Source: a virus. From it: DNA of 64,000 nucleotides. The notes beneath the pieces are model-generated. The model was not told the origin of the DNA. It saw nothing but the letters and a program-made list of their open reading frames with translations, and ran no database searches. The stretch's first letter is position 1. Each line of letters opens with the position of its first letter. This document shows, one piece after another, positions 17,222 through 64,000 of the stretch. The position numbers and the translations under genes are program-made. The stretch lies in the IMG/VR virus record IMGVR_UViG_3300029267_002434; one strand, 5' to 3'.

Positions 17222-17234
17222 GGAATACACAGTG

Positions 17235-17369: not shown

Positions 17370-17370
17370 A

Positions 17371-17529: not shown

Positions 17530-17633
17530 ACCCTACTATGTTCCGGCTCAAGGATTTGACGATGCGCAACTTGGAAGAATCCTTGAGCGGCTCAGTCAGC
17601 AACTAGATTATCTCATAAAGGCGGTGGAGGCGA

Positions 17634-20283: not shown

Positions 20284-20289
20284 CCAAAA

Positions 20290-20365: not shown

Positions 20366-20382
20366 ATCCGAAAGGAAAGGCA

Positions 20383-36321: not shown

Positions 36322-36649
36322 AACAGGAGCGGTTCGGGACACGGCGGAGGGCAAACCGCGACCGGATTTAATATCACCCTACGCCAATCTCCGCGAAGGC
36401 CGATGGCTCCAAAAAGGCGCAGAGAAGTATGATGAACGCAATTGGGAGAAAGGAATACCAATCTCCCGATGCATTGCTTCTCTGGAACGGCACTTATTAG
36501 CCTACAAGCAGGGCTTAACCGACGAAGATCATATGGCAGCGATCCGATGTAATGCGGGGTTCATTCTTCATTTCGAAGAGCTCATAGACCGGGGAATCAT
36601 CCCACCTGAATTAGACGACATGCCGCACTATGAAGAGCCGCCGAACTAA
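36290..36649 (+). CDS. dATP/dGTP diphosphohydrolase N-terminal-like (MazZ-N/DUF5664-type) domain protein
   Basis: DSGSRQEFETGAVRDTAEGKPRPDLISP...GAEKYDERNWEKGIPISRCIASLERHLLAYKQGLTDEDHMAAIRCNAGF matches the SGxRxxFxTGAxRD...KYxxRNW...RHl...DEDH pattern as I recall it for that domain. Confidence 0.5.
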   Translation: MKDSGSRQEFETGAVRDTAEGKPRPDLISPYANLREGRWLQKGAEKYDERNWEKGIPISRCIASLERHLLAYKQGLTDEDHMAAIRCNAGFILHFEELIDRGIIPPELDDMPHYEEPPN

Positions 36650-51600: not shown

Positions 51601-54600
51601 CAAACCGCGTCTCTGGGCAGGTCTTGAACCCATAAAGCCAACTGTCTGCTTCACTCCAAGTCAGCGCCGTTCTCAGATTTTCAGTATCCCAATCGGATGC
51701 TACAGGAACTCGACGTACTAATTCATACCGGTTGTTCTTAGGATTCTCTGGAAATGCGGAACTGAAAGTCAGGGTATCTGAATCATTACTGGCCACTTCC
51801 TTGATCTCATCCGCATCTACTTCGCCACTATCATCCGTATCGCATCGAACGAGCCACCCAGCATATTCATTGTCGCTCCATTCTCCTCTGTCTTGCTCAT
51901 TGCCTACTTGAATATCATTGTCTTCGATGGCCGTGGTGGTACTGTCCCCATCAGCCCACCTCTTTGCAAACTGATCATAGTCGAAAAGGTTCAGAGTTTC
52001 ATTCTGTCGAATATCAAAGTAGGCCCCCTCATATATATACTGCCCTTCAATTCCCATTAAGGGCATCAGCTTAGCAACTGTAATAGTATTTGCAAGCGTA
52101 TCAAAATCCATTACATAACCGCCGATACCAGTATCAGTTCGTACTACATCCAGTTTGTCCAACCTGCTCTCAAACAGACCATTCGGATTATATCTAAGGT
52201 TATTAATGGCAGGATAACGATCCACTTCCCGATACATCCATTCAAAATCAGTCCCGACCCATACCGGGAGCTGGGGATGGATCCATTGTTGGTTTAGGGT
52301 GTCTTGCTCATGATAGTACCCCACTACAAGCCTGTGGTCGATAACGCCTACCTCCTTGGCCTTGAAGAACATACGCAGCGCCTTAATATCTCCCAAGTGG
52401 GCGGGAGCTGATGGATCCACTACCAAGGTATCCTCCATGCTAAAGAAGCCCTGAGTCTCCTGCGCATTGAAGAAATAAGTAGAGTCATCCCCATCCGCAA
52501 GCAGATTCTCTGGACCTAATGGAGGGAAGCTTGAAGTGGTTAGGAATATATCATCTTGCCACCATTGAAAACCACCCTCTGGATCCTCTAAGATTCCAAA
52601 CCGAACTCCCTCCACATAAGAGGAGCTAGATGTGATGGTCCCAGTATAATCAAAGGACATGTCCATATCATCATCTATTGGCTCTACCAATATGTTAAAA
52701 CCCACATCGCTCCCAGCTTGCCATTCTACCCTAATCAAATAAGTAGTAGTTGCATGATCGATCGTACCCGACTCAGGGTAGGTGTACACTTTCGTATCGC
52801 CCTGATAAAAATGAATTTGGTTTTCTCCGTCCGCGCTCCCCGGAGCCCCAATTCGTGCGGTCCAACAGTCTCCTGCGTCTCCTACCAATTGAGCTATCTT
52901 GATATCGTCTGTGCCATTAGTAGCCACGAATATGGCCTTGAAGCTGGTATAAACATGCGTAGGCAAGGGGTCGGTATTGAAATGGGCAGTATCTTGTAGG
53001 TATACATAAGCATCATCCTCCACCGTCCCTCCGCCGGTGTTATAACGAGCGCTGTACTGACCATTAATTATTACATCAGTCCAGGTGACATTCACTGAAG
53101 CGTTAGCCGATGGCTTAGTCCAAGCTGGGTTTGACATCCCATTATCATCATGATAGGCCCGGGCATCGAAATCTTCGTAAACTAAAACGTCTGTCTCACT
53201 ACCATCCAATGTCGGCCACCACCCAAGCGCGAAGTAAGGCTCCACCGCTACATTTTGCTTGACCATACCAGCAGGACCCGGCTGTTCTGAATTACTGTAA
53301 TCCCATTCATCATGATACAATATAGTAGGAACATTATTACACGCATCGCAATCGGTTAAGTCTCGAACACCATATCTAAGAAAATCTGGGGACGCTCCTC
53401 CCGACAAACCTGTGGCAGAATAATTTATGATTCTATTATAAATTCCATTATTGCAAGTAAATGCTTGGATACTGCAAGCAGTCTCTGTATAAGATATCTG
53501 AGCATAAATCCAAGTGCCATCTGGAATAATAGCGCTTTCCGTTGGATTGTTATTTGGGGTATGGGACGTATGGTAATCTTCGAAATAAAGCTCCAGGTTC
53601 CCCCCAGACATTTCCATAGTTGCTCTTACTGCTAGGTCTGTAGTAGAACTATTAAGCAGCAAAAAAGGTCTGAAGTGCTCCCCTTCCGATAAATCAGTTT
53701 GAGATACCCTCCAGTACCCCCTCCAATACTCTTGCGTGCTACCAGCGTCAATATCAGCGTGTGCCGTTTTTCCTACCGATGATGCTTTAAGATCGCATGT
53801 ATCTCCTAATCCAGTAGGACGCTCGGTTCCAATGTTCCATAATTCGGAATAGTTTATATCAGAAATAGTACTAGACGAACAAAACGCATCATCGCAAAAA
53901 GAATCACAACAGTCAATATCCCCATCCCCATCATTGTCGAACGTATCGCAGCAATTATCATTGAATGAGGCTTCATCTTCGCAAACATAACCATCAGACC
54001 CGTGTTCCACCCCTTCGCAATTAGGATCAGCGCAGTCTTTCCCATTTTCTCCGTCATTGTCAATCCCATCGCTACAAAGAGCCGGTGTGTTCTCGATTGT
54101 AGGAGTGTTGTTCTCTTCAACGGCCATATCCCAAAAGCTACCGGAGGGAGTTGGATCGTTCTGATTGTTGTAACAAGTATACACCCATTCATCCGATTTA
54201 AACTCATTCAATATAATTATTTCATCAATATCTCCTTCCCAATCATAGTTGGTACTGTTAAGCCCATTGCCTATATTCCTTATTCCTAAAAAAGTATTCA
54301 TCGATAACGATCCAGAACTTTTTTCATCGTTTAAAAAACAGTACCACGTATCGGAAGCCGTTCTAGTAATTGCAGCAAAGGCCCAGTCTGCTCCTATAGA
54401 CTCTGTTGAAAAATTGTAAGTGTTTTGATTACCGCTAGTTTGAAGCCTGAACTCATCATCGTTAGACCAAGTTGCTATATAACTATCCTCATCCGCTCCT
54501 TGATACCCCAGTAGACTGTCAGTACTAGAAAAAGCTCCACTTGGACACTCAAACCAAATCATCAAAGTACCGCCTTGGTCAGCGCCGCTGCCCCCTACAT

Positions 54601-55189
54601 AAATTGTGGATGCTGGTGCGATATCAAAAGTCGCAACATCTGTTGGGAAACTTTGACACCCATCGATTTGTCCGGTGGGATCCAGGGAAATAGTTCCTGT
54701 CTCACTAAAACTAATATTGTTGGTAGAATCCTCTGCGACCCCCGATTCTTCCATATGCATAACCAATTGGTATTCCCCGTCCCAAGTCGCGGTTGTGTCC
54801 TGCCGATCGGTAGTCTGATTGGAGTTTCCATAATAAAGGTATAGAGTGGTATCACTAGAGGAGGAAAGATTGTCAACCTCAATCCAAAGAGTGGTATCTA
54901 TCTGCGAGTTCCCAGTATCCCGATAGAAATAAGAACGCTCGTAAGCCAGCTCCGTTGAATCATCTCCAGCTATGATCGCAATATCGTATCCGCTTGTGCT
55001 GGTGAGATGACTATATAGATCAGAGTCATTCTGTATTTGTAGAACTACCACATAATTCCCTGTAACCTCTACCAACGAAGAACTTACTGTAAGTTCTTTT
55101 CGGTAGTCCCAATTGGTATCCCACCAGGCCTGGGCGAGAGAAGGGAACATTATTATAATCAACGATACCAACAAGAGCACTCTTTTCAT
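48638..55189 (-). CDS. giant secreted multidomain protein (~2183 aa), collinear paralogue of 42320..48634
   Basis: The start at ATG 55189 (MKRVLLLVSLIIIMFPSLAQA-WW) abuts the upstream stop at 55191. It has the same domain order as its paralogue: YRKELTV...TLYLYYGNSN, LamG-like, ALCSDGIDNDGENGKDCADPNC...DNDGDGDIDCCDSFC, FVVGSDSHG, LLLGDEVPD, DYSDHDYFANDA, FLVTDTRLKSDP and YLVGDRHYRAID. Confidence 0.8.
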   Translation of the reverse strand: MKRVLLLVSLIIIMFPSLAQAWWDTNWDYRKELTVSSSLVEVTGNYVVVLQIQNDSDLYSHLTSTSGYDIAIIAGDDSTELAYERSYFYRDTGNSQIDTTLWIEVDNLSSSSDTTLYLYYGNSNQTTDRQDTTATWDGEYQLVMHMEESGVAEDSTNNISFSETGTISLDPTGQIDGCQSFPTDVATFDIAPASTIYVGGSGADQGGTLMIWFECPSGAFSSTDSLLGYQGADEDSYIATWSNDDEFRLQTSGNQNTYNFSTESIGADWAFAAITRTASDTWYCFLNDEKSSGSLSMNTFLGIRNIGNGLNSTNYDWEGDIDEIIILNEFKSDEWVYTCYNNQNDPTPSGSFWDMAVEENNTPTIENTPALCSDGIDNDGENGKDCADPNCEGVEHGSDGYVCEDEASFNDNCCDTFDNDGDGDIDCCDSFCDDAFCSSSTISDINYSELWNIGTERPTGLGDTCDLKASSVGKTAHADIDAGSTQEYWRGYWRVSQTDLSEGEHFRPFLLLNSSTTDLAVRATMEMSGGNLELYFEDYHTSHTPNNNPTESAIIPDGTWIYAQISYTETACSIQAFTCNNGIYNRIINYSATGLSGGASPDFLRYGVRDLTDCDACNNVPTILYHDEWDYSNSEQPGPAGMVKQNVAVEPYFALGWWPTLDGSETDVLVYEDFDARAYHDDNGMSNPAWTKPSANASVNVTWTDVIINGQYSARYNTGGGTVEDDAYVYLQDTAHFNTDPLPTHVYTSFKAIFVATNGTDDIKIAQLVGDAGDCWTARIGAPGSADGENQIHFYQGDTKVYTYPESGTIDHATTTYLIRVEWQAGSDVGFNILVEPIDDDMDMSFDYTGTITSSSSYVEGVRFGILEDPEGGFQWWQDDIFLTTSSFPPLGPENLLADGDDSTYFFNAQETQGFFSMEDTLVVDPSAPAHLGDIKALRMFFKAKEVGVIDHRLVVGYYHEQDTLNQQWIHPQLPVWVGTDFEWMYREVDRYPAINNLRYNPNGLFESRLDKLDVVRTDTGIGGYVMDFDTLANTITVAKLMPLMGIEGQYIYEGAYFDIRQNETLNLFDYDQFAKRWADGDSTTTAIEDNDIQVGNEQDRGEWSDNEYAGWLVRCDTDDSGEVDADEIKEVASNDSDTLTFSSAFPENPKNNRYELVRRVPVASDWDTENLRTALTWSEADSWLYGFKTCPETRFEDDFSDGGGEISETYGQAVSAGSNQEYISHFIGTTAWTDGIGIKARASGPAYIKVRYGLSEGGVEDNTGSTWTTAASSLLSSSSDYTFQVNILEGQSVTDTNGDSHTVSYSGDGLYNTVVYYDVLIKGENAANYYSMARFEGSMDSLETSNPVWADMTNNLLATKTFPASTYSDTLAFVVGSDSHGIDSPGTWTQIGSQLAANDGSFFLLLGDEVPDPGDVLYANRYMWKSTVGFQNKRFTYTETRSRWPYIKDYSDHDYFANDASKTGAYKFLKNRPTYLRTYIGMQGNKEYTPFPQDSNGDYKLSPDYEGTYWADLTDGVVSSASTGTPYTISDNGRTFGDSSTDDWVAKGMAVHNLTKNAVSFAESASGDTITVNGQCIDFHGEALDWEVGDEFRVSRAGIWHSREFGNVAEFLVTDTRLKSDPVATPGCDYYDGTAYESGYKDAGTVGTQPSAFKLYEALQNFTSTVNVGDVVIVTKADTIDYYAHIKTVDDDETLTLNRDIADEAGSTFVINEAGGTAYDTLAEAHEAGHIQRTWTENTLNNTTALAKFILSDTNIKHNAGRWHDAIPDRDGVCYGNSAELAKEGSATYDSDLYSTPLLTKLDIQSISGGDADFDLGNYVLGGSSGARARIKDVVDNGDGIYTLSFYTEMYIDPYHPDCPGWHSVIHGEFVDEVVYEYTDCALSTASGTQAITVAPSGKPFMANNTTTSGETPYDYNRFWKASGCREYSMNKLSPVPNIFYLVGDRHYRAIDDATHTDDFYLQLDPGPLGPNYTFGFTDWGIDLDDSGHIERDELAFYPHSMTLVDNGITESGASYKLYDSDQNFASTVEVNDIAMVKQGSDIRWFAHVTNVDSNSTLTLDKDIGTANCLFKIYRGYGIDPVNDGIFSNEIDPGQAGGFILIQVDATANTVDVQIMDADGEVWGPTESTFEADAIPLSYIFRPSLIWIYEDWEDDGAPGPTYDWEDIVSFADDYWLDEALGL

Positions 55190-55190
55190 T

Positions 55191-55700
55191 CTACAATACT
55201 CCTTCGAAGACGATCTCAAAATTTCTCCAGCGGTGCCATTCGTCCGATAAAGTATCTGGACAGGTCCCAGCCCACCATCGGTGCCGAGCACCTACATAAT
55301 ACTCAGTCTTGGCGACGAGTTCAGAACAAACGGGCATGCCCGTAAAGCTTAGATATTTCGCAAGAGGAGGTACGACATGGAGGGGAAGTCTCCACCATGG
55401 ATAAATGTCCCCTACGTGGTCTAGGAGCATTAAAAAAGCCTTTTCCCATCTGCGTTCCTCCAGCTCAGTGTATCGAGCGATCACCACCTGGCGACCAGTA
55501 TAGCGCTCAAATAGATTATTGACCTCAACTTTCCAGAGGCTTTCTATCATATCTCCCTCGGGATTTATGATAATCCCAGCATGGGTATAAAGACTCTGGT
55601 TGTCCCTGCTATTCCACTTTTGGACAGCACTAATCCCGCAACCGAGAACGGCTGAGGGATTAGCGGTCGCAAAGAAATCGCAATGTTTAAGATCAATCAT
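55191..55700 (-). CDS. permuted papain-like (NlpC/P60 superfamily, YiiX/C92-like) hydrolase
   Basis: YTHAGIIINPEGDMIESLWKV (His region) precedes MPVCSELVAK (Cys region). This is the permuted order typical of the YaeF/YiiX family. Confidence 0.45.
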   Translation of the reverse strand: MIDLKHCDFFATANPSAVLGCGISAVQKWNSRDNQSLYTHAGIIINPEGDMIESLWKVEVNNLFERYTGRQVVIARYTELEERRWEKAFLMLLDHVGDIYPWWRLPLHVVPPLAKYLSFTGMPVCSELVAKTEYYVGARHRWWAGTCPDTLSDEWHRWRNFEIVFEGVL

Positions 55701-55913: not shown

Positions 55914-56321
55914 TTATTGCGGTTCGGTTGGTATCGTAATAGTAAAGGGCGGCGGCGCCAGGAAGTCAAGTACCGTACTCACCTCATTGCTCTTCTCGCT
56001 CTCATTACCGCTTTCATCGTAAGCCGTAGCGACAAAGTAATAAGTAGTCTCATCCTCATCCGGAGCCGTAATAGAGTTTTCAGAAGTATAAGTAGTCTGC
56101 CCTTCCACATAGGGAACGTCTACAACAAGATCGGGGCTATCTGCACCGAGAGCCTGTCCGTCAGCAGTCAGGCTGGCGTAAATCCGGAATCCCGCTAGAT
56201 CCGCTGGAGGGCTGGGATAATCCCACTGGAGGGCCACCGGTTCGCTTCCGGCGAAAGCGGTAGGCGCGAATATGCAAAACAGGATGGCAAAAATACTTAA
56301 AATACCTACGAATTTTTTCAT
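55914..56321 (-). CDS. secreted FN3/Ig-like small protein
   Basis: ATG 56321 follows GAAGGAG. The signal peptide is MKKFVGILSIFAILFCIFAPTAFA. The LQWDYPSPPADLAGFRIY...YYFVATAYDESGNESEKS pattern is FN3-like. Confidence 0.55.
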   Translation of the reverse strand: MKKFVGILSIFAILFCIFAPTAFAGSEPVALQWDYPSPPADLAGFRIYASLTADGQALGADSPDLVVDVPYVEGQTTYTSENSITAPDEDETTYYFVATAYDESGNESEKSNEVSTVLDFLAPPPFTITIPTEPQ

Positions 56322-56536
56322 TGGTAATACTCCTTCTTCTGAGTTTCGAGTGCTCATCGCACTCCTGTAAAAGATCTAAATCACGTTCTATTCGTTTGCG
56401 AAGCCCACTACCGCAATCATCACCTCCTTTCAATTGCAAATAAGCGTGAATCGCCAGTAGGTCTTCTTTTAATTCTAGTATACGCACTGTGCCCCTCTAA
56501 AATAGTATACCTAGCAGGGGAGTTTTTTACAATAAC

Positions 56537-57250
56537 TTATCGCCAGTACTTTTTAATCCAAGGGAATTCTTTACAGATCTGCCGCTGGGACGGGTCGTAA
56601 ACCCCATTGAAGAAAACCACCCGAGTGTTACTTGGCAAAGGCCTCGCTCCTTTTCGAAACTTCCTGAACAAATAAATCCCTTCGTCCCCCGGCTCCCAAA
56701 CCGGCTCGTCTTTGAGGACATGACTGATATAGGCCTGGTCTGTGCCTACAAACTTAGTTTTCCTACGAGTTCGAGGAGAACGCACCCGTTCCAATTCTTT
56801 GGCCTTCATCGGATCAAAATCATCCCAAACCTCTTTCCGCGCTCCAGCCCTGAGCATGAATAGCGTACCGGAATAGAATGTTCTGGGATTGGTACCTTTG
56901 AGCGCCTTGAAATCCGGGCGCTGATCGAATAAATCTGAAATGTCTCTGAGTATAACACAGTCCAGATCGATAGAGACAATATAATCCCCAATTTGATCCT
57001 TCATTTCCTCCGAGAAGATCTTGAGTCTCCGGTAACACCCTCCCATATCCGCATAGTCATCCCACAGAGGAATGCAGTTTACCGAGTCCTCGACACCCTC
57101 CGGGTCATCAGTAATACAATGGAATTGGTAGGGTATGCTAAGATTTCTACTCAACATATGCCCAAGCCGATTCACATGCGTACTTGTAAACAAGAGCTTT
57201 TTCTTAGGGTGAAGACCAGCATCCCACTTCCAGCAGACTATATTGATCAT
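56537..57250 (-). CDS. GT-A-like (DxD) glycosyltransferase-like protein, paralogue of 37191..37904
   Basis: See 37191..37904. The DxD candidate is SIDLDCVIL. Confidence 0.45.
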   Translation of the reverse strand: MINIVCWKWDAGLHPKKKLLFTSTHVNRLGHMLSRNLSIPYQFHCITDDPEGVEDSVNCIPLWDDYADMGGCYRRLKIFSEEMKDQIGDYIVSIDLDCVILRDISDLFDQRPDFKALKGTNPRTFYSGTLFMLRAGARKEVWDDFDPMKAKELERVRSPRTRRKTKFVGTDQAYISHVLKDEPVWEPGDEGIYLFRKFRKGARPLPSNTRVVFFNGVYDPSQRQICKEFPWIKKYWR

Positions 57251-57981
57251 ACGACCCTCTCGTACGGCGTTTGCAAGGTCATGATTCCTCTGCCCGTCTG
57301 CTTCTTCATAGCCTTGATTTCAGCTTTTTTCCTATTATTCTCATCACCCTTCAAAATCATACGGTCGCGGGGCACACTGGAATCAGGAATGATCTCCCTG
57401 GGATAACGGACCAACGGAACCTCCAACCGGATCCTTTGGCCCCCTGTAAGTTTCAACAGCCGATTGACTTTCTTATTATAACTAGGAGAGGGCCAGTCCG
57501 CCGTTCCGTAGGTCCCAGCGAAGTCCTCATCATAACCTCCTATTCGCCAATACATCTTTCTGGTCATAAAATAAGAATCGTTGTGTGGTTTGTACGGGGT
57601 TTTATCAGGCGCGTCTACCCTCTCGAACTGATAGATATTGTTCGGATCAAACTCACCTCGCAACAATGTCGTATAAGTTTCCAGTGGAACCAAGTGGTCC
57701 ATATCTGAAACCATCAGCCATCCGTCATCAGCATGATACGCCCCTACGTTCCTAGCCATCCGCCAATTCCAATCAATGTGCTCCTTAATGCGGTAGACCC
57801 TGTGCTTGACCATACACGGGGCGCTTTTGAATACTTCTGCCGCCGGAGTTTCGTTCGAGCAATCGTCTGTGACTATCACTTCGAGTTGGGAACCGAAAGG
57901 ATAGGCGTTCCAAGTATCGATATGCTCTCGTAGCATCCCAGGATTGTTCCAATACGAATACACAAATGTGAAAGAGTTCAT
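57247..57981 (-). CDS. family 2 glycosyltransferase (GT2, GT-A fold)
   Basis: FTFVYSYWNNPGMLREHIDTWNAY...LEVIVTDDCSNE is the classic GT2 N-terminus. VSDMDHLV is the DxD-like motif. Confidence 0.7.
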   Translation of the reverse strand: MNSFTFVYSYWNNPGMLREHIDTWNAYPFGSQLEVIVTDDCSNETPAAEVFKSAPCMVKHRVYRIKEHIDWNWRMARNVGAYHADDGWLMVSDMDHLVPLETYTTLLRGEFDPNNIYQFERVDAPDKTPYKPHNDSYFMTRKMYWRIGGYDEDFAGTYGTADWPSPSYNKKVNRLLKLTGGQRIRLEVPLVRYPREIIPDSSVPRDRMILKGDENNRKKAEIKAMKKQTGRGIMTLQTPYERVV

Positions 57982-58904
57982 TATTTTACCCCCGAGTAGA
58001 AAAACGTGAAGTCCTGTTCGTAGATCTCCCTGACTATCTTTTGCTCCTCCGGCCCATAGTATTCTTTCCAGGGCTTGCGCTCCGAACGAGCATTGATTCC
58101 TTTTTCAGGCAAAGGAATTTGCATCCCAGTGTACGAAGCAACCTGATGCCAAGTTTTATCCAATTGCTCCAACTTTAAAACTAGGGACGGCGCTATTCGC
58201 CACCGGCCCTTTTTATCGAGAAAACAAATGTAATAAAATTGAGGAATAAAATGGTAGTTGTACCTCTCAATAGGTTGATCTCTGAGGAAACGAACGAACT
58301 CCGGGAACTCCATACCGGAAGTTGGAAGCCCTGTGGGATCCTCCTCCTGCTTAGTAGGCGCGTATACTTTATCATACCATGCAGAAACCAATCGTGCGTA
58401 AGGATTACGAACCACTGCAATCGATCGATAACTACGGCGCTGCCAATAAAACATTGCGCCCATGTCTATATATGGAATCTCTCCTCGTTCATCCTGGCGC
58501 AAAGCATCCTTTCTAAGCACATCATTATCTGGATAGTACCCCCACCCCTTAGCAAAGGCGTTCTTCAAAGCAGTAGAAGCATTCTTAGGGATCGCCATGA
58601 AGATTGTACGGTGTTTGTGGGATAGCATATTATTCCGTTTGATATTCATCATCCGCGCATCATTGTAAAAATCACTCCTTTCACTCACCCACTTCTCTTC
58701 ATTGTATTCTTTTAATTTAGCAACGATCCGCTTGGCCATCGTAACGCCTATTCGGATCTTTGTTTCTAACTCCTCAGTCTCCGGCGAGTCATCTAAGGTC
58801 TGTACAATTTTCCACATCTCCCTAAAATTTTCGCATATGGTATACCTACTGCCTCCCTGTAACAACTCCTCCAGAGAACAAGGTTCATGTTTATGAAGCG
58901 CCAT
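57981..58904 (-). CDS. sulfotransferase (Sulfotransfer_2-like, carbohydrate sulfotransferase type)
   Basis: The 5'-PSB motif is IFMAIPKNASTALKNAF. The 3'-PB motif is VVRNPYARLVSAWYDKV. Confidence 0.65.
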   Translation of the reverse strand: MALHKHEPCSLEELLQGGSRYTICENFREMWKIVQTLDDSPETEELETKIRIGVTMAKRIVAKLKEYNEEKWVSERSDFYNDARMMNIKRNNMLSHKHRTIFMAIPKNASTALKNAFAKGWGYYPDNDVLRKDALRQDERGEIPYIDMGAMFYWQRRSYRSIAVVRNPYARLVSAWYDKVYAPTKQEEDPTGLPTSGMEFPEFVRFLRDQPIERYNYHFIPQFYYICFLDKKGRWRIAPSLVLKLEQLDKTWHQVASYTGMQIPLPEKGINARSERKPWKEYYGPEEQKIVREIYEQDFTFFYSGVK

Positions 58905-59577
58905 ACTCCTCTCCTTTCAGCTTTATTCCAGTAGCTGCCACCCACTCCCTGCCTATATCTTTCACCATCAAGGACTTATCAGGCCCAAATAACACCAGCT
59001 GTTGCTTGGTATTTATAAATTCCAAGAACACAGGATGCTTTCGCATCATAGGGCTTGGATCGTTCTTAGCGGGTGGTTTTCTCATTCTGCGGAGCATACC
59101 TTTCACATAGCTTTTCTCCATCAATGCCGGAGGAAAATGAGGCCGGTTGCGCGCCCTGACCCCAAGATCCAAGCCCTTGTACGAAAACCGACCGGTGACC
59201 GGAGTCGGTCCTTTATAAAAACCAATTAGTGATACCTTATCATGCGATTGCAGGTAGTCTATGCACAGATCCAAATCCAACGGCTGTAGTAACTCCCAAT
59301 CATCTTCCCATTGCAAAACAAACTCTGTCTGGCACAAATTCCATACAGTACGAACAGCATGAAAGAACGAGGCCTGAGCAGGTTGATGGAAAAGCGCCGT
59401 CTCAAAGAAAAGAGATGCTTGGGCCATAACCTCCTCCCGAGTGGTACCATCCCCCTTCGGATCAATATTCATTATTAAACGAAGTTCGTGGGAGGTCTTC
59501 AAATTGCGCTTCAAAGATTCAAACACAACCTTATGGACATCGGGTCTGATACATGCTGTCATTGTTATATCAATCAT
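58891..59577 (-). CDS. hypothetical; possible GT-A-like nucleotide-sugar transferase
   Basis: ITMTACIRPDVHKVVFESLKRNL and LQWEDDWELL give a TTxR...EDD-type layout. The evidence is weak. Confidence 0.3.
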   Translation of the reverse strand: MIDITMTACIRPDVHKVVFESLKRNLKTSHELRLIMNIDPKGDGTTREEVMAQASLFFETALFHQPAQASFFHAVRTVWNLCQTEFVLQWEDDWELLQPLDLDLCIDYLQSHDKVSLIGFYKGPTPVTGRFSYKGLDLGVRARNRPHFPPALMEKSYVKGMLRRMRKPPAKNDPSPMMRKHPVFLEFINTKQQLVLFGPDKSLMVKDIGREWVAATGIKLKGEEYGAS

Positions 59578-60128
59578 TTTTTCCTACCACAAAACCAAAA
59601 CACAGGATCGAACAAATCTTCGTGAACCCGGACAATGTTCTCTTTTTCCATGGACTCCGCTATATCAGCCAGTGTGATTTCGCACCACCATGCATCGCTA
59701 GTCCTGCCCTCGGGCCAGAAGTCGTGCGCCATTATAAAGTCACCTGATTTCAATATAGGTCCAAACGCCTGAACCTCCTTAATCTTATTACCATTGTCAC
59801 AAAGCACTAAAGTAGGACCAGAGCGTTGTATCGCCACTTTAATAGACCGTTTGATCTCCCAAAGGTCGGTGCTAGAATAAACCTTGCCGCTTAATCCTAC
59901 AATTAGTTTAACAACTGACCTGCTCACGTGCTTGATTTCATAAGTATAGAATTTTCCTTGTGTAATGTATTGGCAATACGCAAAGAAAGTAGAAAGGGAG
60001 CCCCGCCCCGTGCCCAATTCTATAATCTGGGTAAACTGATGATCCCGAAAGAACTCCACAAAGGCCGCGATCGTCCCACGCGCTTGCGCCATTCCTGTCC
60101 CGAATAAAATCTCCTTACTTGGTTTCAT
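59574..60128 (-). CDS. class I SAM-dependent methyltransferase
   Basis: Motif I is IIELGTGRGSLSTFFA, the acidic motif II is FYTYEI and LVLCDNG follows. Confidence 0.6.
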   Translation of the reverse strand: MKPSKEILFGTGMAQARGTIAAFVEFFRDHQFTQIIELGTGRGSLSTFFAYCQYITQGKFYTYEIKHVSRSVVKLIVGLSGKVYSSTDLWEIKRSIKVAIQRSGPTLVLCDNGNKIKEVQAFGPILKSGDFIMAHDFWPEGRTSDAWWCEITLADIAESMEKENIVRVHEDLFDPVFWFCGRKK

Positions 60129-60786
60129 ATTGCTCCTTTCGATAGCCTCGATAATATTCTACCAACCGCCCGAGGTCCAGCGCCTGTCGGCCTCGTTGGC
60201 ATAATTCTGCGGCCAATACGGTTGCGGCAGGGCCTAAGAACAGTACATACAGACTATGCTTGGGCAATTCCATCATACGCTTAAGGAGTCTTTCTTTGTG
60301 AGAGTAAGCATCCCGTTCCGGCCCCCTAATTATTTGCAGACTCTTAGCGGAACCAAAGAAGCCCCCCTTCTCATAATTCCGATGAGAACCCCGCAACATA
60401 ACTACGTCCCGGCCCGAGAGTACACTAGCCCATAGCTCCCAATACGCATCGTTCATGATAGGAGCCTGATCCCCCCGGCTAACGAAAGCTGAACCAAACG
60501 TAGTAAATAGGTCTGCATGCCGACGAAACCTACTCATCTGCCTCCTCCAAAACTTGTGAAGCTTCGGATCAACGCAAGCATTATGACGAGGTATCCCTAC
60601 TATCAGATCTGGAATCTTGTTATTAAGGATCCGACGAAGATCGTAAGTTATCCCAGGAACAAGCATCTGGCAGTTCCTTTGGTGTTTCCCGTCCACTAAT
60701 TTCAGTTCTCCATCTCCGAACCTGGCTAAACTTTTACCGTGGCGTAGAATTGATTCTACAGTGGTGAATTCGTCCATTATTTCCAT
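60115..60786 (-). CDS. GT-D-type (DUF1792-like) glycosyltransferase
   Basis: SLARFGDGELKLVDG matches the RFGDGE signature of DUF1792. LIVGIP follows. Confidence 0.5.
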   Translation of the reverse strand: MEIMDEFTTVESILRHGKSLARFGDGELKLVDGKHQRNCQMLVPGITYDLRRILNNKIPDLIVGIPRHNACVDPKLHKFWRRQMSRFRRHADLFTTFGSAFVSRGDQAPIMNDAYWELWASVLSGRDVVMLRGSHRNYEKGGFFGSAKSLQIIRGPERDAYSHKERLLKRMMELPKHSLYVLFLGPAATVLAAELCQRGRQALDLGRLVEYYRGYRKEQYETK

Positions 60787-61427
60787 GAGAGCGCCTTTTC
60801 AATACTTACTTTGGGAAACCCTCTGATCTCACTATCAGGGTTGGCGTTAAACACCTTAATACTCGGCCAGCGCCTGGGTAAAAACTTAGCAACCCGGGAA
60901 GTCCGACTGACGATACACGAATACATATCTTTTTCACTTTCCTTATAATGCTTCATCCAATTACGAGCCGAGCCAGCGCCCTTGCCATCGTAGCCTACCA
61001 ATACCAACCTCGTTGCTCCCATAAGAATAGCCAAACTAATGGCGCATCCACCGGATGATCCATTATAACTAAGTACGGGCTTATGGAATATAGTGCCAGC
61101 CCCATACTTGTATTTTACATAAGTCAATCCAGGCTCGTATCTAACAGTAGGATTCTTCCCTTTTGCTACATCTAGGACACTACCACGATCGATGGTATAT
61201 TTGGGACCTTGAAAGGACTCTACCGCTTTCTTATTCCACCAGTACCATTTTGCGTCTCCAAAAAACAGCACGTCAGTGCAAGGCAGATAAACCGCATTGT
61301 TTATTCCTAATACATTTTTATCCATAAGACGCTCTATCAGATTACTACACAGATCCTGGCCGACCACACTCGGGCCTCCTCCGAGCAAAAACACCGTAGA
61401 TCCTGGCCATCTCCTTTCAATTATCAT
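60777..61427 (-). CDS. DUF115/Maf-like or GT42-like (sialyltransferase-type) transferase, paralogue 1
   Basis: VFLLGGGPSV...VLGINNA...FFGDAKWYW...LVLVGYDG resembles the GxGPS...N...D motifs of DUF115/Cst-type enzymes. Confidence 0.4.
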   Translation of the reverse strand: MIIERRWPGSTVFLLGGGPSVVGQDLCSNLIERLMDKNVLGINNAVYLPCTDVLFFGDAKWYWWNKKAVESFQGPKYTIDRGSVLDVAKGKNPTVRYEPGLTYVKYKYGAGTIFHKPVLSYNGSSGGCAISLAILMGATRLVLVGYDGKGAGSARNWMKHYKESEKDMYSCIVSRTSRVAKFLPRRWPSIKVFNANPDSEIRGFPKVSIEKALSWK

Positions 61428-62095
61428 AATACAGACTCCAAGCTGACATACGGAATATACTCATTTAACGCAGAAACTTTTGAACAAGAGACTATCTCTA
61501 CCTTGGGCATCGCTGCTATGGTCTTTACAAAAGCCCTTTTGAACTTATCATAGCGTTCGGGTTTAGTCGCATTTTTGCGCTTCTCATCATAACAATCGTG
61601 AAAATGCGTTTCTCCTCTGCGCTTGGCATCTTTGTCTAAGTCGCATCCCAAAAGATAAATAGGATTGAGTCCCATTATATTAGCGATTCGAATAGCCGTG
61701 ACTCCTGCATTGTTCCAGGTAGGCACTCTATCATTCCACTTCTCGGGAGCAATAGGATGATTCTTCTCGCTGCCCATTGGGAACTGTAACGCGTTCTTTA
61801 TAGTCACGCTCGTCAACTTGCTCGGATAGAACATGATAGTCTTTTGAAGAGATTTGAGATCTTGATTAAAGGTCCTCCAATATCCCCGATCTATAAAAAT
61901 AAGGTAAGTCGGCTCAAACAACTTGAAAGCATGGTTGGAGCCGACTGTTATCTCTTGTTTCAGCTTCTCAACTATCTCCGGGGAAATGTCTCGAATAGAC
62001 GGACCTCCGCCTATTACAAAACCTCGTTGTCCTCGGTGCTTCTTTTCATAGAGCCGCAGCTTGCGTCCTTGCACTAGACTATTCTCCTTAACCAA
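61424..62095 (-). CDS. DUF115/Maf-like or GT42-like transferase, paralogue 2
   Basis: GFVIGGGPSIRD...TVGSNHA...IFIDRGYW...IYLLGCDL has the same layout as 60777..61427. Confidence 0.4.
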   Translation of the reverse strand: MVKENSLVQGRKLRLYEKKHRGQRGFVIGGGPSIRDISPEIVEKLKQEITVGSNHAFKLFEPTYLIFIDRGYWRTFNQDLKSLQKTIMFYPSKLTSVTIKNALQFPMGSEKNHPIAPEKWNDRVPTWNNAGVTAIRIANIMGLNPIYLLGCDLDKDAKRRGETHFHDCYDEKRKNATKPERYDKFKRAFVKTIAAMPKVEIVSCSKVSALNEYIPYVSLESVL

Positions 62096-62906
62096 AATTG
62101 AGACTGAGCTGACTGGCTGAGAACCTAACCGATTCTCCTGAACTTACAGTGACGCCTCCGCTTGCCAAATTACCATAAAATAATAAGTTAGAGGACTGAT
62201 TTAATATATAACCATGACCCACTAATCCCCAATTAGAAGCAGCGGCGGTAAACGTAATGGTAGAACTATTAGCCACCGCTGTCCCCGCACTAGAAGTAGT
62301 CCAATCGGTATGAGTTACCAAAGTAGTACCAGGAGTCCCAGTCGGATCAGTAATATTACCACCATCTGCTCCCGGATTAGTAGTAGACAGTCCGACTTGG
62401 ATACTGGAAGATTGGGAGAAAGCTGAAATATTTAACAAATGATTGATTAAACCATTGCCCATATAGTTAGATATAATAGCACTCCCAGCCGTCAAACTCA
62501 ACTCTCCCGCCTGTACTCTAACTGAGGTTCCTGAAGTAACAGTCTTTGAAGAACTAAACTCCCCATGAAACAGCATATTGGCTTCTGATTGAAGCGTTAA
62601 ATCATCCATCACCGCATAATGGGTAATGGTACTCCAATCCTCCCCCGCGACTCCAAAATCAATCAGATTCTGATTCGTAGATGATTTGTTGGTGGAAGTA
62701 GTCCAATTGGCGCTCCCCACTCCAATTTGCTGCCTTTCATAACTCGCGCCATCGGGCTCGCCTGAAAAAGAAATAGCCCCCTCTCCGGCCCCTGCGGGAT
62801 CGCTAGTGAATAAGGCTAAAAACAGATCGGTAGGCTGCGGGCACGCCGACCCTAGCATTACATGATTCAAAGCCAAGCTTTCCCAGTAATTAGTCAAACA
62901 CCCCAT
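62088..62906 (-). CDS. hypothetical fibre-associated protein with internal duplication
   Basis: Two similar halves (see 39677..40201) and a T/S/G-rich beta composition. Confidence 0.5.
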   Translation of the reverse strand: MGCLTNYWESLALNHVMLGSACPQPTDLFLALFTSDPAGAGEGAISFSGEPDGASYERQQIGVGSANWTTSTNKSSTNQNLIDFGVAGEDWSTITHYAVMDDLTLQSEANMLFHGEFSSSKTVTSGTSVRVQAGELSLTAGSAIISNYMGNGLINHLLNISAFSQSSSIQVGLSTTNPGADGGNITDPTGTPGTTLVTHTDWTTSSAGTAVANSSTITFTAAASNWGLVGHGYILNQSSNLLFYGNLASGGVTVSSGESVRFSASQLSLNFG

Positions 62907-62916
62907 GACTGCCTCC

Positions 62917-64000
62917 TTAAGTTATCTTAACCAATGTAAGGGTTCTTTCTTCCTGAGCCCAATTATAAGTCTTTTCTGTAACCATGAAATTATACAATCC
63001 ACCGGTCTGATAAGGGACCAATAAAGCCAACGACTCGTTCCCCACTCCCGTGGTTTGTAGATTGAGGTAATCTCCCATCTCGTAATCGATCGCCCTCCAT
63101 TGGAAGTTGGCTTCAAGTACCATTCGTTCTTGGCCATTAAATTCAGCCCAGAAGCCCAAAACCTCCGAGGCCATCCCTCTATCTTTTATCCAAGGCAACG
63201 ATATCACCTCTTCTGAAGTTCCATAGGTCCCCACGCCTGAAGAATAGCTACGGCCTATAGCCTCTTGTAAAGCCTCTTCGCCCGACTTATTCCAGTGCAT
63301 CTTATATCGGCCTTTATAAGAGGTAGTGAGTGATTCAATCGAAGTAAAACTCATTGTTACGTCTATTACCTCATCAGGTATAACAGTGGTCGCAGTTATC
63401 GCTTCATTGGAGGAAGCGTATAATATCGCCTCACTGGCAAATTGACCCGTCCAGGACGCTTGTACAAATAAAGGACCAAAAAACGATAGGTCGGCTGCTG
63501 TATTGAATTCCCCTTGCCAATCAGCAGCGGCTCCATGGACCGTACCAACCGCAGTAGTAAGAATACCGGTGGTACTGAACTCACCTTGCCAATCAGCTTG
63601 GGCCGCTATCTGTTGTGCCGAAGTTATATCAGCGATTGTCGAAAACTCCCCTTGCCAATCGGCAGAGGCAGGAGCATAAGTTCGCAGATGATAGTGATCT
63701 ACACGCCAGACCTCTTCATCATGGCGCGTAATAATAGTACCAGAGGACTGATCGCTATCTTGCTGACCTACCCCCAACGCTACAGGAGCAGGAGCCCCCT
63801 CTGGTAGAGTTCCATACCCCCCTCTGGCAGTATCTACATAGACTTCCCACGCATCATTAACTTTATCATATTTGTATTGGAGACGAACCCAGGTATCAAG
63901 CGAGAAAGCTATGGGAGAGCTGAAAAGACCGGTTTGCCAAACAGCTCCGTCATAATACTCAAAATCTATTTCGTAGGTTCCGCCATTGTTGGTAATTCGA
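62917..64000 (-). CDS. fibre-like protein, 5'-truncated by the window edge; LamG-like N-part, ADWQGEF repeats, C-terminal domain
   Basis: The ORF-track start at 63777 is a TTG. The same frame stays open to nt 63999 (hand-translated ITNNGGTYEIDFEYYDGAVWQTGLFSSPIAFSLDTWVRLQYKYDKVNDAWEVYVDT...). The gene therefore continues beyond the window. Confidence 0.6.
   Translation of the reverse strand, partial: RITNNGGTYEIDFEYYDGAVWQTGLFSSPIAFSLDTWVRLQYKYDKVNDAWEVYVDTARGGYGTLPEGAPAPVALGVGQQDSDQSSGTIITRHDEEVWRVDHYHLRTYAPASADWQGEFSTIADITSAQQIAAQADWQGEFSTTGILTTAVGTVHGAAADWQGEFNTAADLSFFGPLFVQASWTGQFASEAILYASSNEAITATTVIPDEVIDVTMSFTSIESLTTSYKGRYKMHWNKSGEEALQEAIGRSYSSGVGTYGTSEEVISLPWIKDRGMASEVLGFWAEFNGQERMVLEANFQWRAIDYEMGDYLNLQTTGVGNESLALLVPYQTGGLYNFMVTEKTYNWAQEERTLTLVKIT

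Follow-up and report, generated by a model that had tools for sequence, protein, structure and literature searches.

The uncultivated phage analysed here, whose genome measures 106 kb, carries an island of eight genes that, judging from its sequence, is an elaborated, sulfating variant of a widespread phage cassette located in virion-building operons. The products comprise six glycosyltransferases, one methyltransferase and one sulfotransferase. We propose, with about an even chance of being right, that they would glycosylate the phage's own virion proteins stepwise in the cytoplasm and decorate the glycan with O-methyl and sulfate groups. All positions refer to the window, a stretch of 64,000 nucleotides of IMG/VR record IMGVR_UViG_3300029267_002434.

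Organization of the island and its neighbourhood

The eight ORFs lie back-to-back on the minus strand (56537-62095), neighbours overlapping by 1-14 nt (Table 1), exactly as the preliminary description had placed them, and all eight of its enzyme-family assignments hold in Pfam, PHROG, profile and structure-model matches. The genome is divided into a replication module on the plus strand and a fibre/lysis module on the minus strand. The former contains genes for a thymidylate-synthase homologue, a dCMP deaminase, a PLP enzyme and radical-SAM-like proteins, located more than 35 kb from the island. The island itself is part of the phage late operon, where it immediately follows a tail-fibre gene of Gp80 type. 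From its TTG start at 62095, ORF1 overlaps this fibre gene by 8 nt; in the alternative JGI call, a 216-aa product starts near 62074, 13 nt after the fibre gene. ORF8 is followed by a gap of 179 nt. Promoter-like and terminator-like sites were no more frequent at the island than in shuffled sequence.

Table 1. Genes of the island and its immediate neighbours, listed in the direction of transcription.
Feature	Position	Strand	Basis
Tail-fibre protein, two Gp80 (podophage GP4 fibre I) domains	62088..62906	-	Pfam PF23140, PHROG 240
ORF1, DUF115/GT42-like transferase, 223 aa from TTG	61424..62095	-	PHROG 4603, Pfam, GGGPS
ORF2, second DUF115/GT42-like transferase	60777..61427	-	PHROG 4603, profile, AF2 model
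ORF3, GT-D (DUF1792) glycosyltransferase, RFGDGE (DxE) motif	60115..60786	-	Pfam, PDB
ORF4, class I SAM-dependent methyltransferase, CmcI/rhamnosyl-O-methyltransferase type	59574..60128	-	homologues, profile
ORF5, predicted GT-A-fold glycosyltransferase, EDD(WE) motif	58891..59577	-	AF2 + Foldseek
ORF6, Sulfotransfer_2 sulfotransferase	57981..58904	-	Pfam 7.5e-21, PHROG 3347
ORF7, GT2-family GT-A glycosyltransferase, DD...DxDH	57247..57981	-	Pfam, profile
ORF8, DxD (DLD) GT-A-type nucleotide-sugar transferase, GT8-like	56537..57250	-	PHROG 1962, PDB
FN3-like protein, small, acidic, 147 aa	55914..56357	-	translation; PHROG 31 FN3 region 9e-5

The surroundings also agree with the preliminary description, which had placed fibre genes upstream and secreted proteins downstream. 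The upstream fibre protein matches the Gp80 family over two stretches (1.1e-47); with its acidic pI of 4.4 and a Ser+Thr content of 25.7%, it is a candidate acceptor. The first gene past the 179-nt gap encodes the FN3-like protein, which has a signal-peptide-like N-terminus (hydropathy 2.39, residue 17). It is accompanied by two giant proteins of ~2,100-2,200 aa with hydrophobic N-termini and DUF2341/PhoD-like domains. The flanking structural and secreted proteins are acidic and contain 17-26% Ser+Thr, and all eight island proteins are basic (pI 8.3-9.8). No likely membrane span was found in the latter (19-residue windows, maximum mean hydropathy 1.85), their two highest hydropathy windows being located within the conserved catalytic core, and all eight are predicted to be soluble.

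Neither Pfam nor PHROG revealed an initiating phosphoglycosyl transferase, flippase, polymerase or ABC exporter among the eight genes, and the island is thus not a complete polysaccharide pathway. The ~81 kb inspected of the 106-kb genome yielded no Pfam call for PAPS synthesis or for sugar-nucleotide synthesis, the latter not seen in the preliminary description either.

Glycosyltransferases of the island

ORF1 and ORF2 share 22% identity and the GGGPS motif. Both match PHROG 4603, annotated as 'alpha-2,3-sialyltransferase' (2.5e-19 and 1.8e-22, respectively). The Pfam MptE-like/DUF115 match of ORF1 is weak and below cutoff (1.9e-6), and PF01973 is present on homologues of ORF2. A profile of the family retrieves CstII/Cst-I (1.3e-5), and the AF2 model of ORF2 (pLDDT 88.6) is nearest to CstII (5.5e-6), with MptE second. 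Judged by fold, the phage DUF115-like proteins are about as near to the MptE pyrophosphokinase (TM ~0.5) as to CstII, whose catalytic His has no clear aligned counterpart in them. A distant DUF115-like gene (pmgO/pmgP) is found in phage P1.

ORF3 is a clear member of the GT-D family (Pfam 5.7e-28). It aligns with the solved DUF1792 structures, PDB 4phr GalT1 (1.7e-17) and also 5v4a, including the RFGDGE motif, in which G24, D25, G26 and E27 are invariant. ORF5 had been called a possible GT-A protein. It shows no sequence match to any Pfam or PHROG family, and its AF2 model (pLDDT 89.1) matches GT-A enzymes in Foldseek, namely SpsA (3.5e-9), GnT-I and TarP, in the range of 1e-8 to 1e-9, and also POMGnT1. 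The EDDWE motif is invariant, and 64 relatives of ORF5 occur in viral contigs. The model thus upholds the assignment of ORF5 as a predicted GT-A enzyme.

ORF7 matches Pfam Glycos_transf_2 above cutoff (5.2e-7), and its profile retrieves the GT2 structures 6yv7, TarS, TarP and GmaR. ORF8 matches the glycosyltransferases of PHROG 1962 (3.3e-14); its DLD motif is invariant, and at least 356 relatives occur in viral contigs. Its PDB match, to the Skp1 alpha-galactosyltransferase Gat1, is weak (8e-4).

Methyltransferase and sulfotransferase

The homologues of ORF4 carry PF04989 (CmcI) and are named 'cephalosporin hydroxylase'. Its profile retrieves CmcI itself (2bm8, 1.7e-4) and class I O-methyltransferases, and the motif E37-x-G39-T40 is conserved.

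In ORF6, the catalytic domain (residues ~90-305) is preceded by a lineage-specific extension of ~90 aa. Both PAPS-binding motifs reported in the preliminary description are intact: K107, R166 and R171 are invariant, and N167, P168, S174 and H218 nearly so (motif R166-N-P-x-x-R171-x-x-S174). At E<1e-30, only ORF6 itself and its orthologue in the related phage L007 were matched among 1.84 billion representatives. Phage sulfotransferase genes such as ORF6 are grouped in PHROG 3347. Such genes are carried by marine and ice phage genomes, where their role has been called unclear (PMC10580990). Those listed as auxiliary metabolic genes are isolated genes, for example of the Sulfotransfer_3 type (PMC10580990), whereas ORF6 is a Sulfotransfer_2 enzyme whose gene is set within an operon of glycosyltransferase and methyltransferase genes and translationally coupled to them, so that a glycan is a likely substrate. 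A second, unrelated sulfotransferase of the same phage is encoded in its early/middle module.

Related cassettes in other phages

The full island is kept, in the same gene order, in L007, a relative of ~50% identity. The linkage between the Gp80 gene and the island is conserved there as well, and the giant gene is relocated: the PhoD-like giant adjoins the Gp80 gene and the island upstream in L007 and lies downstream in the phage described here.

A homologous cassette is found in the Tetraselmis viridis virus S20/SI1 (NC_020840), which has five or six of the eight island genes in common. It encodes homologues of ORF2 (two copies), ORF3 (35% identity), ORF5 (26%), ORF7 (38%, ~1e-46) and ORF8 (34%, ~1e-46), oriented in one direction and in a similar order within a structural operon. 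A small methyltransferase gene is also present, although its product has no BLAST-detectable relation to ORF4. Unlike the island, this cassette lacks a sulfotransferase, and it does not follow a Gp80 fibre gene: in this 39-kb siphophage, it separates the capsid genes from those for head closure. Related gene sets follow the tail genes of Caulobacter jumbo phages.

Four of the genes (DUF115, GT-D, GT2 and the ORF8-type glycosyltransferase) form a core found in dozens of independent lineages of IMG/VR phages; of 60 dereplicated viral lineages with a GT-D gene, 45-49 have it. Cultured phages with this core include, besides S20, Caulobacter phage CcrColossus and Pseudomonas phage PP9W2. Among the best 80 GT-D loci from bacterial genomes, only three show this association. 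The usual site of the core is between the major head protein and head-closure genes; in 88 cassette loci, it is preceded by the portal, the protease and either the major head protein or a collagen-like fibre, with Hc1/Neck1 following. In L090, it is likewise inside a morphogenetic operon, and a Sulfotransfer_2 gene also occurs in a few independent cassettes (L090, L150). The L007 and S20 cassettes, the recurring core and these additional sulfotransferases indicate that the island is not unique.

The preliminary description had held that no such phage island was described, which is overstated in view of these deposited cassettes. In the literature searched, no paper dealt with the function of this cassette type or with a sulfated glycan made by a phage, and on that basis both are still undescribed.

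Proposed function and alternatives

The island would be a late-expressed, phage-encoded cytoplasmic glycosylation module. Its six soluble glycosyltransferases (two GT42/DUF115-like, one GT-D and three GT-A enzymes, i.e., ORF5, the GT2 and the GT8-like protein) would build, one sugar after another, a short hetero-oligosaccharide on co-produced Ser/Thr-rich phage proteins, with the Gp80-type fibre encoded next to the island, or virion proteins from nearby genes, as the most likely acceptor. Host nucleotide sugars would serve as donors, which, by analogy with GT42/Maf enzymes, may include a CMP-activated ulosonic acid. The CmcI-type enzyme would then O-methylate the glycan with SAM, and the Sulfotransfer_2 enzyme would sulfate it with host PAPS, providing the virion surface with an anionic, capped glycan coat. 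Such a coat could alter adsorption, shield the fibres against proteases or receptor mimics, or change the stickiness of the particles in a saline sediment.

Several precedents exist among the families represented here. The glycans of serine-rich adhesins are worked on by DUF1792 enzymes, flagellins are modified by Maf/DUF115 enzymes, and the targets of GmaR and Gat1 are cytoplasmic proteins. The island resembles the adhesin system (dGT1/GalT1) in its GT-D enzyme, homologous to the DUF1792 structures with their DxE motif, and the Maf system in the DUF115/GT42-type fold. As in bacterial cytoplasmic O-glycosylation in general, its enzymes are soluble and would act before export or assembly; however, a GtfA/B pair, an accessory Sec system and nonulosonic-acid synthesis genes were not seen here. 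The phage DUF115 proteins are also minimal (216 aa), devoid of the substrate-binding and flanking domains of Maf. Chloroviruses and mimiviruses encode multi-enzyme sets for their capsid and fibril glycans, methylated sugars included. These sets likewise build decorated glycans on virion surface proteins, although they belong to eukaryotic viruses, are accompanied by their own sugar-nucleotide synthesis and derive from unrelated gene families; we know of no report of sulfation among them.

A direct parallel is found in the mycobacteriophages Che8, Corndog and Myrna, in which phage-encoded glycosyltransferases modify capsid and tail-tube proteins (Freeman et al. 2023, summarized in PMC12363180 and PMC12619734). 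Soluble phage enzymes act there on the phage's own virion proteins in the cytoplasm, and this earlier demonstration also tempers the novelty claimed in the preliminary description. We know of no other system of the kind proposed here that has been shown by experiment; its hosts are actinobacterial.

The intact motifs, the soluble enzymes beside acidic, Ser/Thr-containing structural or secreted proteins, the lack of a complete polysaccharide pathway, the operon coupling to the fibre gene, the conserved Gp80 linkage, the phage-specific core within morphogenetic operons and the family and mycobacteriophage precedents all argue for virion glycosylation. The minimal size of the DUF115-like proteins, their MptE-like fold and the unclear His argue against it, as does the fact that, to our knowledge, no glycosylated P1 virions have been reported. 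A late-operon position is also typical of host-acting morons, and neither an acceptor motif nor a glycosylation site was identified. The interpretation given in the preliminary description is only partly supported.

The main rival, which we consider rather unlikely, is a remodelling of the host envelope from its cytoplasmic face. The target would be an undecaprenyl-linked intermediate (of O-antigen, capsule or EPS), the core of LPS, flagellin, pilin or a protein of the S-layer; the sugars, methyl groups and sulfate added to it would mask the receptor, blocking superinfection or preventing progeny from being trapped on cell debris. Bacterial surface-polysaccharide loci typically encode GT2, GT8-like, CmcI-type methyltransferase and Sulfotransfer_2 enzymes, homologues of ORF4 occur widely in metagenome contigs of cellular origin, and lipooligosaccharide is the substrate of GT42 enzymes such as CstII. 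Moreover, relatives of ORF6 and ORF8 are classed in PHROG as 'moron, auxiliary metabolic gene and host takeover', and the second sulfotransferase would fit host-directed sulfation. However, the island has no membrane-embedded Gtr-type or Wzx/Wzy-type component and, unlike classical seroconversion modules, neither a separate promoter nor an opposite orientation, being translationally coupled to the fibre gene. Many unrelated phages have the core inserted at one conserved site, with head genes on one side and neck genes on the other, a constancy that would be unusual if it were a host-conversion moron, and cellular loci hardly ever show the four-gene association.

It is less probable still that the exported FN3 protein and the two giants are the acceptors, becoming mucin-like sulfated glycoproteins that are released or displayed on the envelope. 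They are encoded directly downstream in the same transcriptional direction, are acidic with ~17-18% Ser+Thr, and possess N-terminal hydrophobic segments; the giant next to the island in L007 also fits. Nevertheless, the only cases known to us of proteins glycosylated in the cytoplasm and then exported by Sec involve dedicated accessory Sec systems, none of which was seen here, the position of the giant is not conserved, and the core cassette occurs in many phages without such giants. A decoration of hydroxymethylated bases in the phage DNA with a modified glycan, evading restriction, is very improbable. DNA-hypermodifying phage glycosyltransferases are known (Pyle et al. 2024, as cited in PMC12619734), and the products of the plus-strand genes listed above, from the thymidylate-synthase homologue to the radical-SAM-like proteins, could make modified bases. 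These genes belong, however, to the distant replication module and not to the late fibre operon, and the core cassette resides in head modules of 40-60-kb phages. We also know of no DNA-modifying member of the GT-D, GT42-like or sulfotransferase families.

Genome Context and Layout of the Island

The window is phage DNA. Its plus strand, from position 1 to ~38.5 kb, carries genes for an SNF2-type and a DnaB-like helicase, a primase, a family-A DNA polymerase in split form, exonucleases and a UvsX-like recombinase. Its minus strand, from ~38.5 to 64 kb, carries those for fibre-like proteins, an endolysin-like protein and a pair of proteins of ~2,100–2,200 aa (the giants). The window belongs to a contig of 106,017 bp, which two JGI metagenome assemblies contain with differing start points; this suggests a complete genome that is circularly permuted or terminally redundant. 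The two assemblies are 3300018065 Ga0180430_10000086 and 3300017992 Ga0180435_10000051; a 106,038-bp version is also recorded. Identical island proteins are found on 13 contigs, including the Logan runs SRR6963492, SRR6963312 and SRR6963308, and blastn against 50,697 phage genomes returned no nucleotide-level relative of positions 56100–64000.

The eight minus-strand genes of the island (ORF1–ORF8 in order of transcription, 62095 down to 56537) lie where the preliminary description had placed them. Neighbouring genes overlap by 1–14 nt, ORF1 overlaps the fibre gene upstream or directly adjoins it, and ORF8 is followed by a gap of 179 nt. The GC content of the island is unremarkable. Promoter-like and terminator-like sites were as frequent in a scan as expected from shuffled sequence, which therefore gives no evidence of operon boundaries, and co-transcription of the island with the fibre genes is the simplest reading. 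All eight proteins are basic (pI 8.3–9.8); the neighbouring structural and secreted proteins are acidic (pI 4.0–4.4) with a Ser+Thr content of 17–26%. In none of the eight does a 19-residue window look like a probable membrane span (maximum mean hydropathy 1.85), and the two highest values fall within the conserved catalytic core. An archaeal (haloarchaeal) virus was considered as the source of this DNA and rejected, as the enzymes are basic, not acidic, and, in our reading of the start contexts, AGGAGG-like Shine-Dalgarno sequences precede several genes.

Features of the island, its surroundings and other parts of the window, with predicted assignments
Feature	Position	Strand	Predicted assignment	Evidence or remark
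ORF1/ORF2		-	DUF115/GT42-like	PHROG 4603 'alpha-2,3-sialyltransferase', 2.5e-19 / 1.8e-22
ORF3		-	GT-D (DUF1792, PF08759)	Pfam 5.7e-28, 98.6 bits against a cutoff of 27
ORF4		-	CmcI-type class I SAM methyltransferase (CmcI / rhamnosyl O-methyltransferase family)	Homologues carry PF04989
ORF5		-	GT-A fold	AF2 pLDDT 89; Foldseek matches to SpsA, POMGnT1, GnT-I and TarP, 1e-8 to 1e-9
ORF6	57981-58904	-	Sulfotransfer_2 (PF03567)	Pfam 7.5e-21, 75.8 bits against a cutoff of 22
ORF7		-	GT2 (GT-A fold)	Pfam above cutoff; profile matches to GT2 structures
ORF8		-	DxD GT-A, GT8-like	PHROG glycosyltransferase, 3.3e-14
Gp80 tail-fibre gene	62088-62906	-	Tail fibre	Two Pfam Gp80 domains, 1.1e-47; directly upstream of the island
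Giants	42320-48634, 48638-55291	-		Adjacent, acidic, ~2,100 and ~2,200 aa, hydrophobic N-termini
437-aa protein	62917-64000, continuing past the window	-		Upstream of the Gp80 fibre gene
169-aa protein	55191-55700	-		
Second sulfotransferase	37873-38568	+	Sulfotransfer_3	231 aa; Pfam 4.5e-8, above cutoff
Base-modification set	~11455-21105, 36290-36649	+	Possible DNA base modification	Replication module
PLP-dependent enzyme	13063-13926	+	PALP	In the possible base-modification set
Two paralogous proteins	10191-11288, 15582-17012		Radical-SAM-like	Both PHROG 13321; in the possible base-modification set
Thymidylate-synthase homologue	20335-21105	+		
tRNA-Gly(CCC)	20290-20365	+		Single gene
Split DNA polymerase	21102-23713	+	Family A	

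Predicted Enzymes of the Island

Pfam, PHROG and profile searches, together with comparisons to the PDB and by AF2/Foldseek, uphold all eight family assignments of the preliminary description. No NCBIfam match above cutoffs was obtained for any of the eight proteins. What is said here on the function of the island is predicted from sequences and structure models.

The Pfam MptE-like match of ORF1 and ORF2 is weak, lying under the gathering cutoff, and their homologues carry PF01973. The profile of this family matches the GT42 sialyltransferases CstII and Cst-I (1.3e-5). Both the N-terminal nucleotide-binding motif G-x-G-P-S (GGGPS, aligned to GNGPS of CstII) and the central core S-G...L-G...L-x-G-x-D (SSG..AI.LA..LG...I.LLG.D, aligned to TSG..LG..IYLSGID) are present. 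The AF2 model of ORF2 (pLDDT 88.6) is nearest to CstII (5.5e-6, TM ~0.5), only slightly ahead of the archaeal MptE kinase (3.3e-4). The family has no conserved His in the region aligned to the CstII segment that holds His188, and a partly conserved one is located elsewhere, in 'NW.PH'. Because the catalytic His of CstII is not clearly conserved, we only infer a glycosyltransferase activity and a CMP-sugar donor for ORF1 and ORF2.

ORF3 aligns with solved DUF1792 structures (PDB 4phr, 1.7e-17) over residues 12–216, the whole domain. Its metal-binding DxE motif (R-x-G-D-G-E) reads RFGDGE, as in the aligned GalT1, with D25 and E27 invariant in three phage orthologues. ORF4 by itself reaches just 0.096 against Pfam Methyltransf_23, so its family membership rests on the profile of its homologues, which matches CmcI (2bm8) at 1.7e-4 and also class I O-methyltransferases. 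The Rossmann SAM-binding motif I (E/D-x-G-x-G) is found as IIELGTGRG, where E37 and G39 are invariant and T40 is nearly so. For ORF5, no sequence family matched and the profile search of PDB sequences was empty, and the fold is therefore predicted from the structure model; its acidic motif EDDWE is invariant. Invariant residues are also present in ORF7 (D39 D40 and D93-x-D95) and in ORF8 (D95-L-D97). ORF8 weakly matches the Skp1 alpha-galactosyltransferase Gat1, and its predicted GT-A assignment is less firmly supported than those of ORF5 and ORF7.

ORF6 is a predicted PAPS-type sulfotransferase with intact motifs. The Lys that binds the 5'-phosphosulfate (P-K-x-x-S-T) corresponds to K107 in IPKNAST, and the 3'-phosphate-binding motif R-x-P-x-x-R-x-x-S to RNPYARLVS; K107, R166, R171 and S174 are invariant or nearly so among 30 homologues, and His218 is near-invariant. 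Close relatives are limited to one cluster among 1.84 billion representative proteins. ORF6 alone found no relative in a scan of IMG/VR and, by tblastn, just two weak partial matches in phage genomes. Residues 1–90 form a lineage-specific N-terminal extension, which is missing from the 232-aa orthologue of a related Logan contig (L007). This stretch of ~90 aa, almost wholly unmatched in the homologues found among the 1.84 billion representatives, could be an acceptor-recognition or docking domain.

The gene of the second sulfotransferase is the last of the plus-strand module and faces the lysis/fibre module. Orthology of the two was rejected, as BLASTP shows no similarity of this protein to ORF6. 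That one phage has two such enzymes suggests that sulfation is important to it. In published genome surveys, the role of such enzymes in phages is described as unclear (PMC10580990).

A Core Cassette Shared with Other Phages

The preliminary description took the island to be undescribed, a claim that goes too far: its core occurs in phage genomes already deposited as well as in many metagenomic phages. In the deposited genomes, the genes are annotated singly, as 'alpha-2,3-sialyltransferase', 'glycosyl transferase' or 'methyltransferase'. Tetraselmis viridis virus S20/SI1 (TvV-S20/SI1), a 39-kb member of the Caudoviricetes, carries two homologues of ORF2, homologues of ORF3 (35%), ORF5 (26%), ORF7 (38%) and ORF8 (34%), and a methyltransferase. 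This cassette is located between the capsid genes and a head-closure gene, and the sulfotransferase is absent. The entire island, in conserved order (Gp80, two DUF115, GT-D, methyltransferase, ORF5-like, Sulfotransfer_2, GT2 and ORF8-like), was found in L007, with proteins 34–62% identical to those of the window. A DUF115-like gene also occurs in Caulobacter and Brevundimonas jumbo phages; in CcrColossus it comes right after a tail-protein gene, with more transferase and methyltransferase genes behind.

In scans of IMG/VR, ORF8 had at least 356 relatives, the GT-D enzyme at least 179 and ORF5 64. Co-occurrence was determined with HMMs built from our own alignments, within ±9 kb of each match, for the best 80 loci per scan and with simple six-frame ORFs. 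The 79 GT-D loci contain an ORF8-type glycosyltransferase in 62 cases, a DUF115-like gene in 62 and an ORF7-type GT2 in 57. After dereplication at 90% identity, the respective numbers are 49, 49 and 45 of 60 lineages, and at 60% identity 32, 28 and 30 of 36. In bacterial genomes, this four-gene association (the core cassette) occurs in only 3 of the best 80 of 409 GT-D relatives, and is thus phage-specific. The three carriers are a Bradyrhizobium genome and two contigs, one binned with a Syntrophobacteraceae MAG, the other from a Steroidobacteraceae MAG and also bearing portal and protease genes; the Bradyrhizobium locus holds the cassette and, in the labelled gene set, no recognisable head genes. 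In bacterial assemblies, the closest GT-D is encoded on a contig (L237) that was binned with a Syntrophobacteraceae MAG. Neither the CmcI-type methyltransferase nor the ORF5 GT-A was detected in the GT-D and ORF8 locus sets at E<=1e-5. These two and the sulfotransferase are additions of this lineage to the shared core. Sulfotransfer_2-like genes within or beside the cassette are found on a few independent viral contigs, most clearly L090 and L150, with 28–29% identity to ORF6.

The flanks of 88 cassette loci were compared by clustering three genes on each side, from crude longest-ORF gene calls, and running the cluster representatives on PHROGs. On the upstream side, genes for portal, prohead protease, head decoration and major head proteins and for collagen-like fibres (10 loci) recur; where a major head protein is present, it is immediately upstream in 11 of 12 loci. 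Downstream, the head-closure protein Hc1 and Neck1 recur. Given these neighbours, the core cassette is a conserved insert of the morphogenetic operon, beside genes of surface-exposed virion proteins: capsid, decoration or collagen-like fibre genes in other phages and the Gp80 fibre gene in the window. The order in L090 is portal, collagen-like fibre, DUF115, head-tail adaptor, GT-D, sulfotransferase, two DUF115, GT2, ORF8-type glycosyltransferase, endonuclease, Neck1, major tail, tube and tape measure.

Distant DUF115-like homologues of ORF2 (~24% identity) are also encoded by the 'putative morphogenetic' genes pmgO/pmgP of P1 (NC_005856, 79652–80188) and hdmB/hdmC of P7. In the Pseudomonas phages PP9W2 and PaD_phPA-G, such distant homologues adjoin head-tail adaptor genes. 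A different phage glycan island was observed at 2571–11063 of the contig ERZ27254811 k141_60348 (ENA), adjoining DNA polymerase A and portal genes. Its glycosyltransferases are an ORF5-family GT-A, two GT1 and a GT2, and it further encodes three methyltransferases, a hexapeptide acyltransferase and a radical-SAM protein.

Neighbouring Genes and Candidate Acceptors

Gp80 is fibre I of the podophage GP4. According to PMC11445570, citing Zheng et al. 2023, fibres I and II of GP4 are attached around the tail. Farther upstream, the contig encodes proteins of 437, 695, 139, 130, 1118, 257 and 2428 aa, the last with tape-measure-like segments. Downstream of the island come an FN3-like protein of 147 aa whose N-terminus resembles a signal peptide, a membrane protein of 67 aa, a further protein of 169 aa and the giants. 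The latter show weak DUF2341 matches, and one of them also a weak match to PhoD-like phosphatases. Neither the giants nor the upstream proteins of 1118, 695 and 437 aa had a match in PHROGs, which leaves these acceptor candidates unannotated.

The 437-aa protein (8677–9990 on the contig L010) appears in the window as a TTG-start ORF of 286 aa. It contains three to four tandem repeats of ~22–24 aa starting with ADWQGEF(S/N)T and has no Pfam or PHROG match. Neither has the 169-aa protein, whose His/Cys motifs THAGII and VCSELV recall, by eye, permuted NlpC/P60 or YiiX-type cysteine peptidases.

Predicted Role of the Island

As a translationally coupled part of the late operon, the island combines six soluble transferases with a SAM methyltransferase and a PAPS-type sulfotransferase, all with their catalytic motifs intact. 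It encodes no lipid-carrier initiating transferase, flippase, polymerase or exporter, and a self-contained polysaccharide pathway was rejected for that reason. We see roughly even prospects that its enzymes glycosylate virion proteins of the phage in the cytoplasm. Host nucleotide sugars, SAM and PAPS would serve as donors and cofactors, and the product on the virion proteins would be a methyl-capped, sulfated and hence anionic oligosaccharide. Genes for the synthesis of sugar nucleotides, which the preliminary description had not seen, and of CMP-sugars or PAPS are absent from the precomputed Pfam calls in the ~81 kb of the 106-kb genome inspected.

This reading is supported by the action of close structural relatives in cytoplasmic protein glycosylation and by the precedent of mycobacteriophages. 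Serine-rich adhesins are the targets of DUF1792 enzymes, flagellins those of Maf/DUF115 enzymes, and cytoplasmic proteins those of GmaR and Gat1. In mycobacteriophages, glycosylation of the virion alters antibody recognition; to our knowledge, virion glycosylation has been demonstrated experimentally only in a few of these phages. Two papers, citing Freeman et al. 2023, describe experiments in which phage glycosyltransferases glycosylate capsid and tail-tube proteins (PMC12363180, PMC12619734). In that system, the glycan is attached covalently to structural proteins of the virion and depends on the phage's glycosyltransferase genes; for the island, the comparison is one of genomic position, adjacent to a fibre gene here and, for the core cassette of other phages, between head and neck genes. 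More tentatively, phage enzymes alone could make an O-methylated and sulfated oligosaccharide, perhaps with an ulosonic acid, that coats the tail fibres or other surface proteins of the virion.

Virion glycosylation has to be weighed against a modification of host-envelope glycoconjugates, which we consider rather unlikely. LPS and CPS loci typically hold these enzyme families too, a further sulfotransferase is encoded elsewhere in the phage, and relatives are filed by PHROG under morons; however, membrane components are absent, the island is coupled to late genes, and the position in the head module is conserved. Phage modules for seroconversion or O-antigen modification (Gtr-, Wzy/Oac-type) comprise an integral-membrane transferase or flippase, and their expression, mostly from the prophage, does not depend on the late genes. 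The island, in contrast, has no likely membrane span and no match to the Gtr, Wzx, Wzy or Oac families, and its genes are co-oriented and overlapping with the late genes.

Glycosylation of the exported giants, encoded downstream of the island, appears improbable. The PhoD-like giant of L007 (1,862 aa) is encoded upstream of its Gp80 gene, while the giants of the window lie downstream; since L007 otherwise keeps the gene order, the linkage of island and Gp80 is conserved and the position of the giants varies. Glycosylation of DNA is least credible by far, and was rejected on the position of the island and the enzyme families.

Novelty and Implications

The island is not categorically new, as it resembles in its working a protein- or glycan-tailoring module built from known enzyme families. 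It is the richest version of the cassette, with eight enzymes and both methylation and sulfation. A literature search found no functional study of this cassette type, and nothing on the cassette in publications on DUF1792 in phages, phage fibre glycosylation or Maf. If the phage does carry the methylated and sulfated coat, this would be the first sulfated glycoprotein described on any bacteriophage, and the island the most elaborate member of a widespread, previously unrecognised class of virion-glycosylation cassettes in morphogenetic operons. Glycan-coated virions would then be common among environmental phages of Gram-negative bacteria. If the cassette serves the purpose shown in mycobacteriophages, such coats would be frequent among uncultivated phages, with the core in at least 179–356 IMG/VR contigs and dozens of independent lineages. 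This would bear on how phages adsorb, on their host range, on the stability of the particles, on immune recognition in phage therapy and on the reading of 'auxiliary metabolic' glycosyltransferases. The sulfotransferase-bearing variants would supply a first concrete substrate context for phage sulfotransferases. Tractable cultured carriers of core-cassette genes are TvV-S20, the Caulobacter and Brevundimonas jumbo phages, Pseudomonas phage PP9W2 and P1 (pmgO/pmgP), and the DUF115-like homologues of P1-like and Pseudomonas phages could be genetic test systems for the family.

Other Features of the Genome

The possible base-modification set includes an N6/N4 DNA methyltransferase, a dCMP deaminase, an LPG_synthase_C-like protein and a MazZ-like dGTP diphosphohydrolase N-terminal domain. 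The thymidylate-synthase homologue of this set could be a hydroxymethylase, since its match is confined to the C-terminal part. Two separate proteins make up the family-A DNA polymerase, one with UDG and 3'-5' exonuclease, the other with the polymerase domain.
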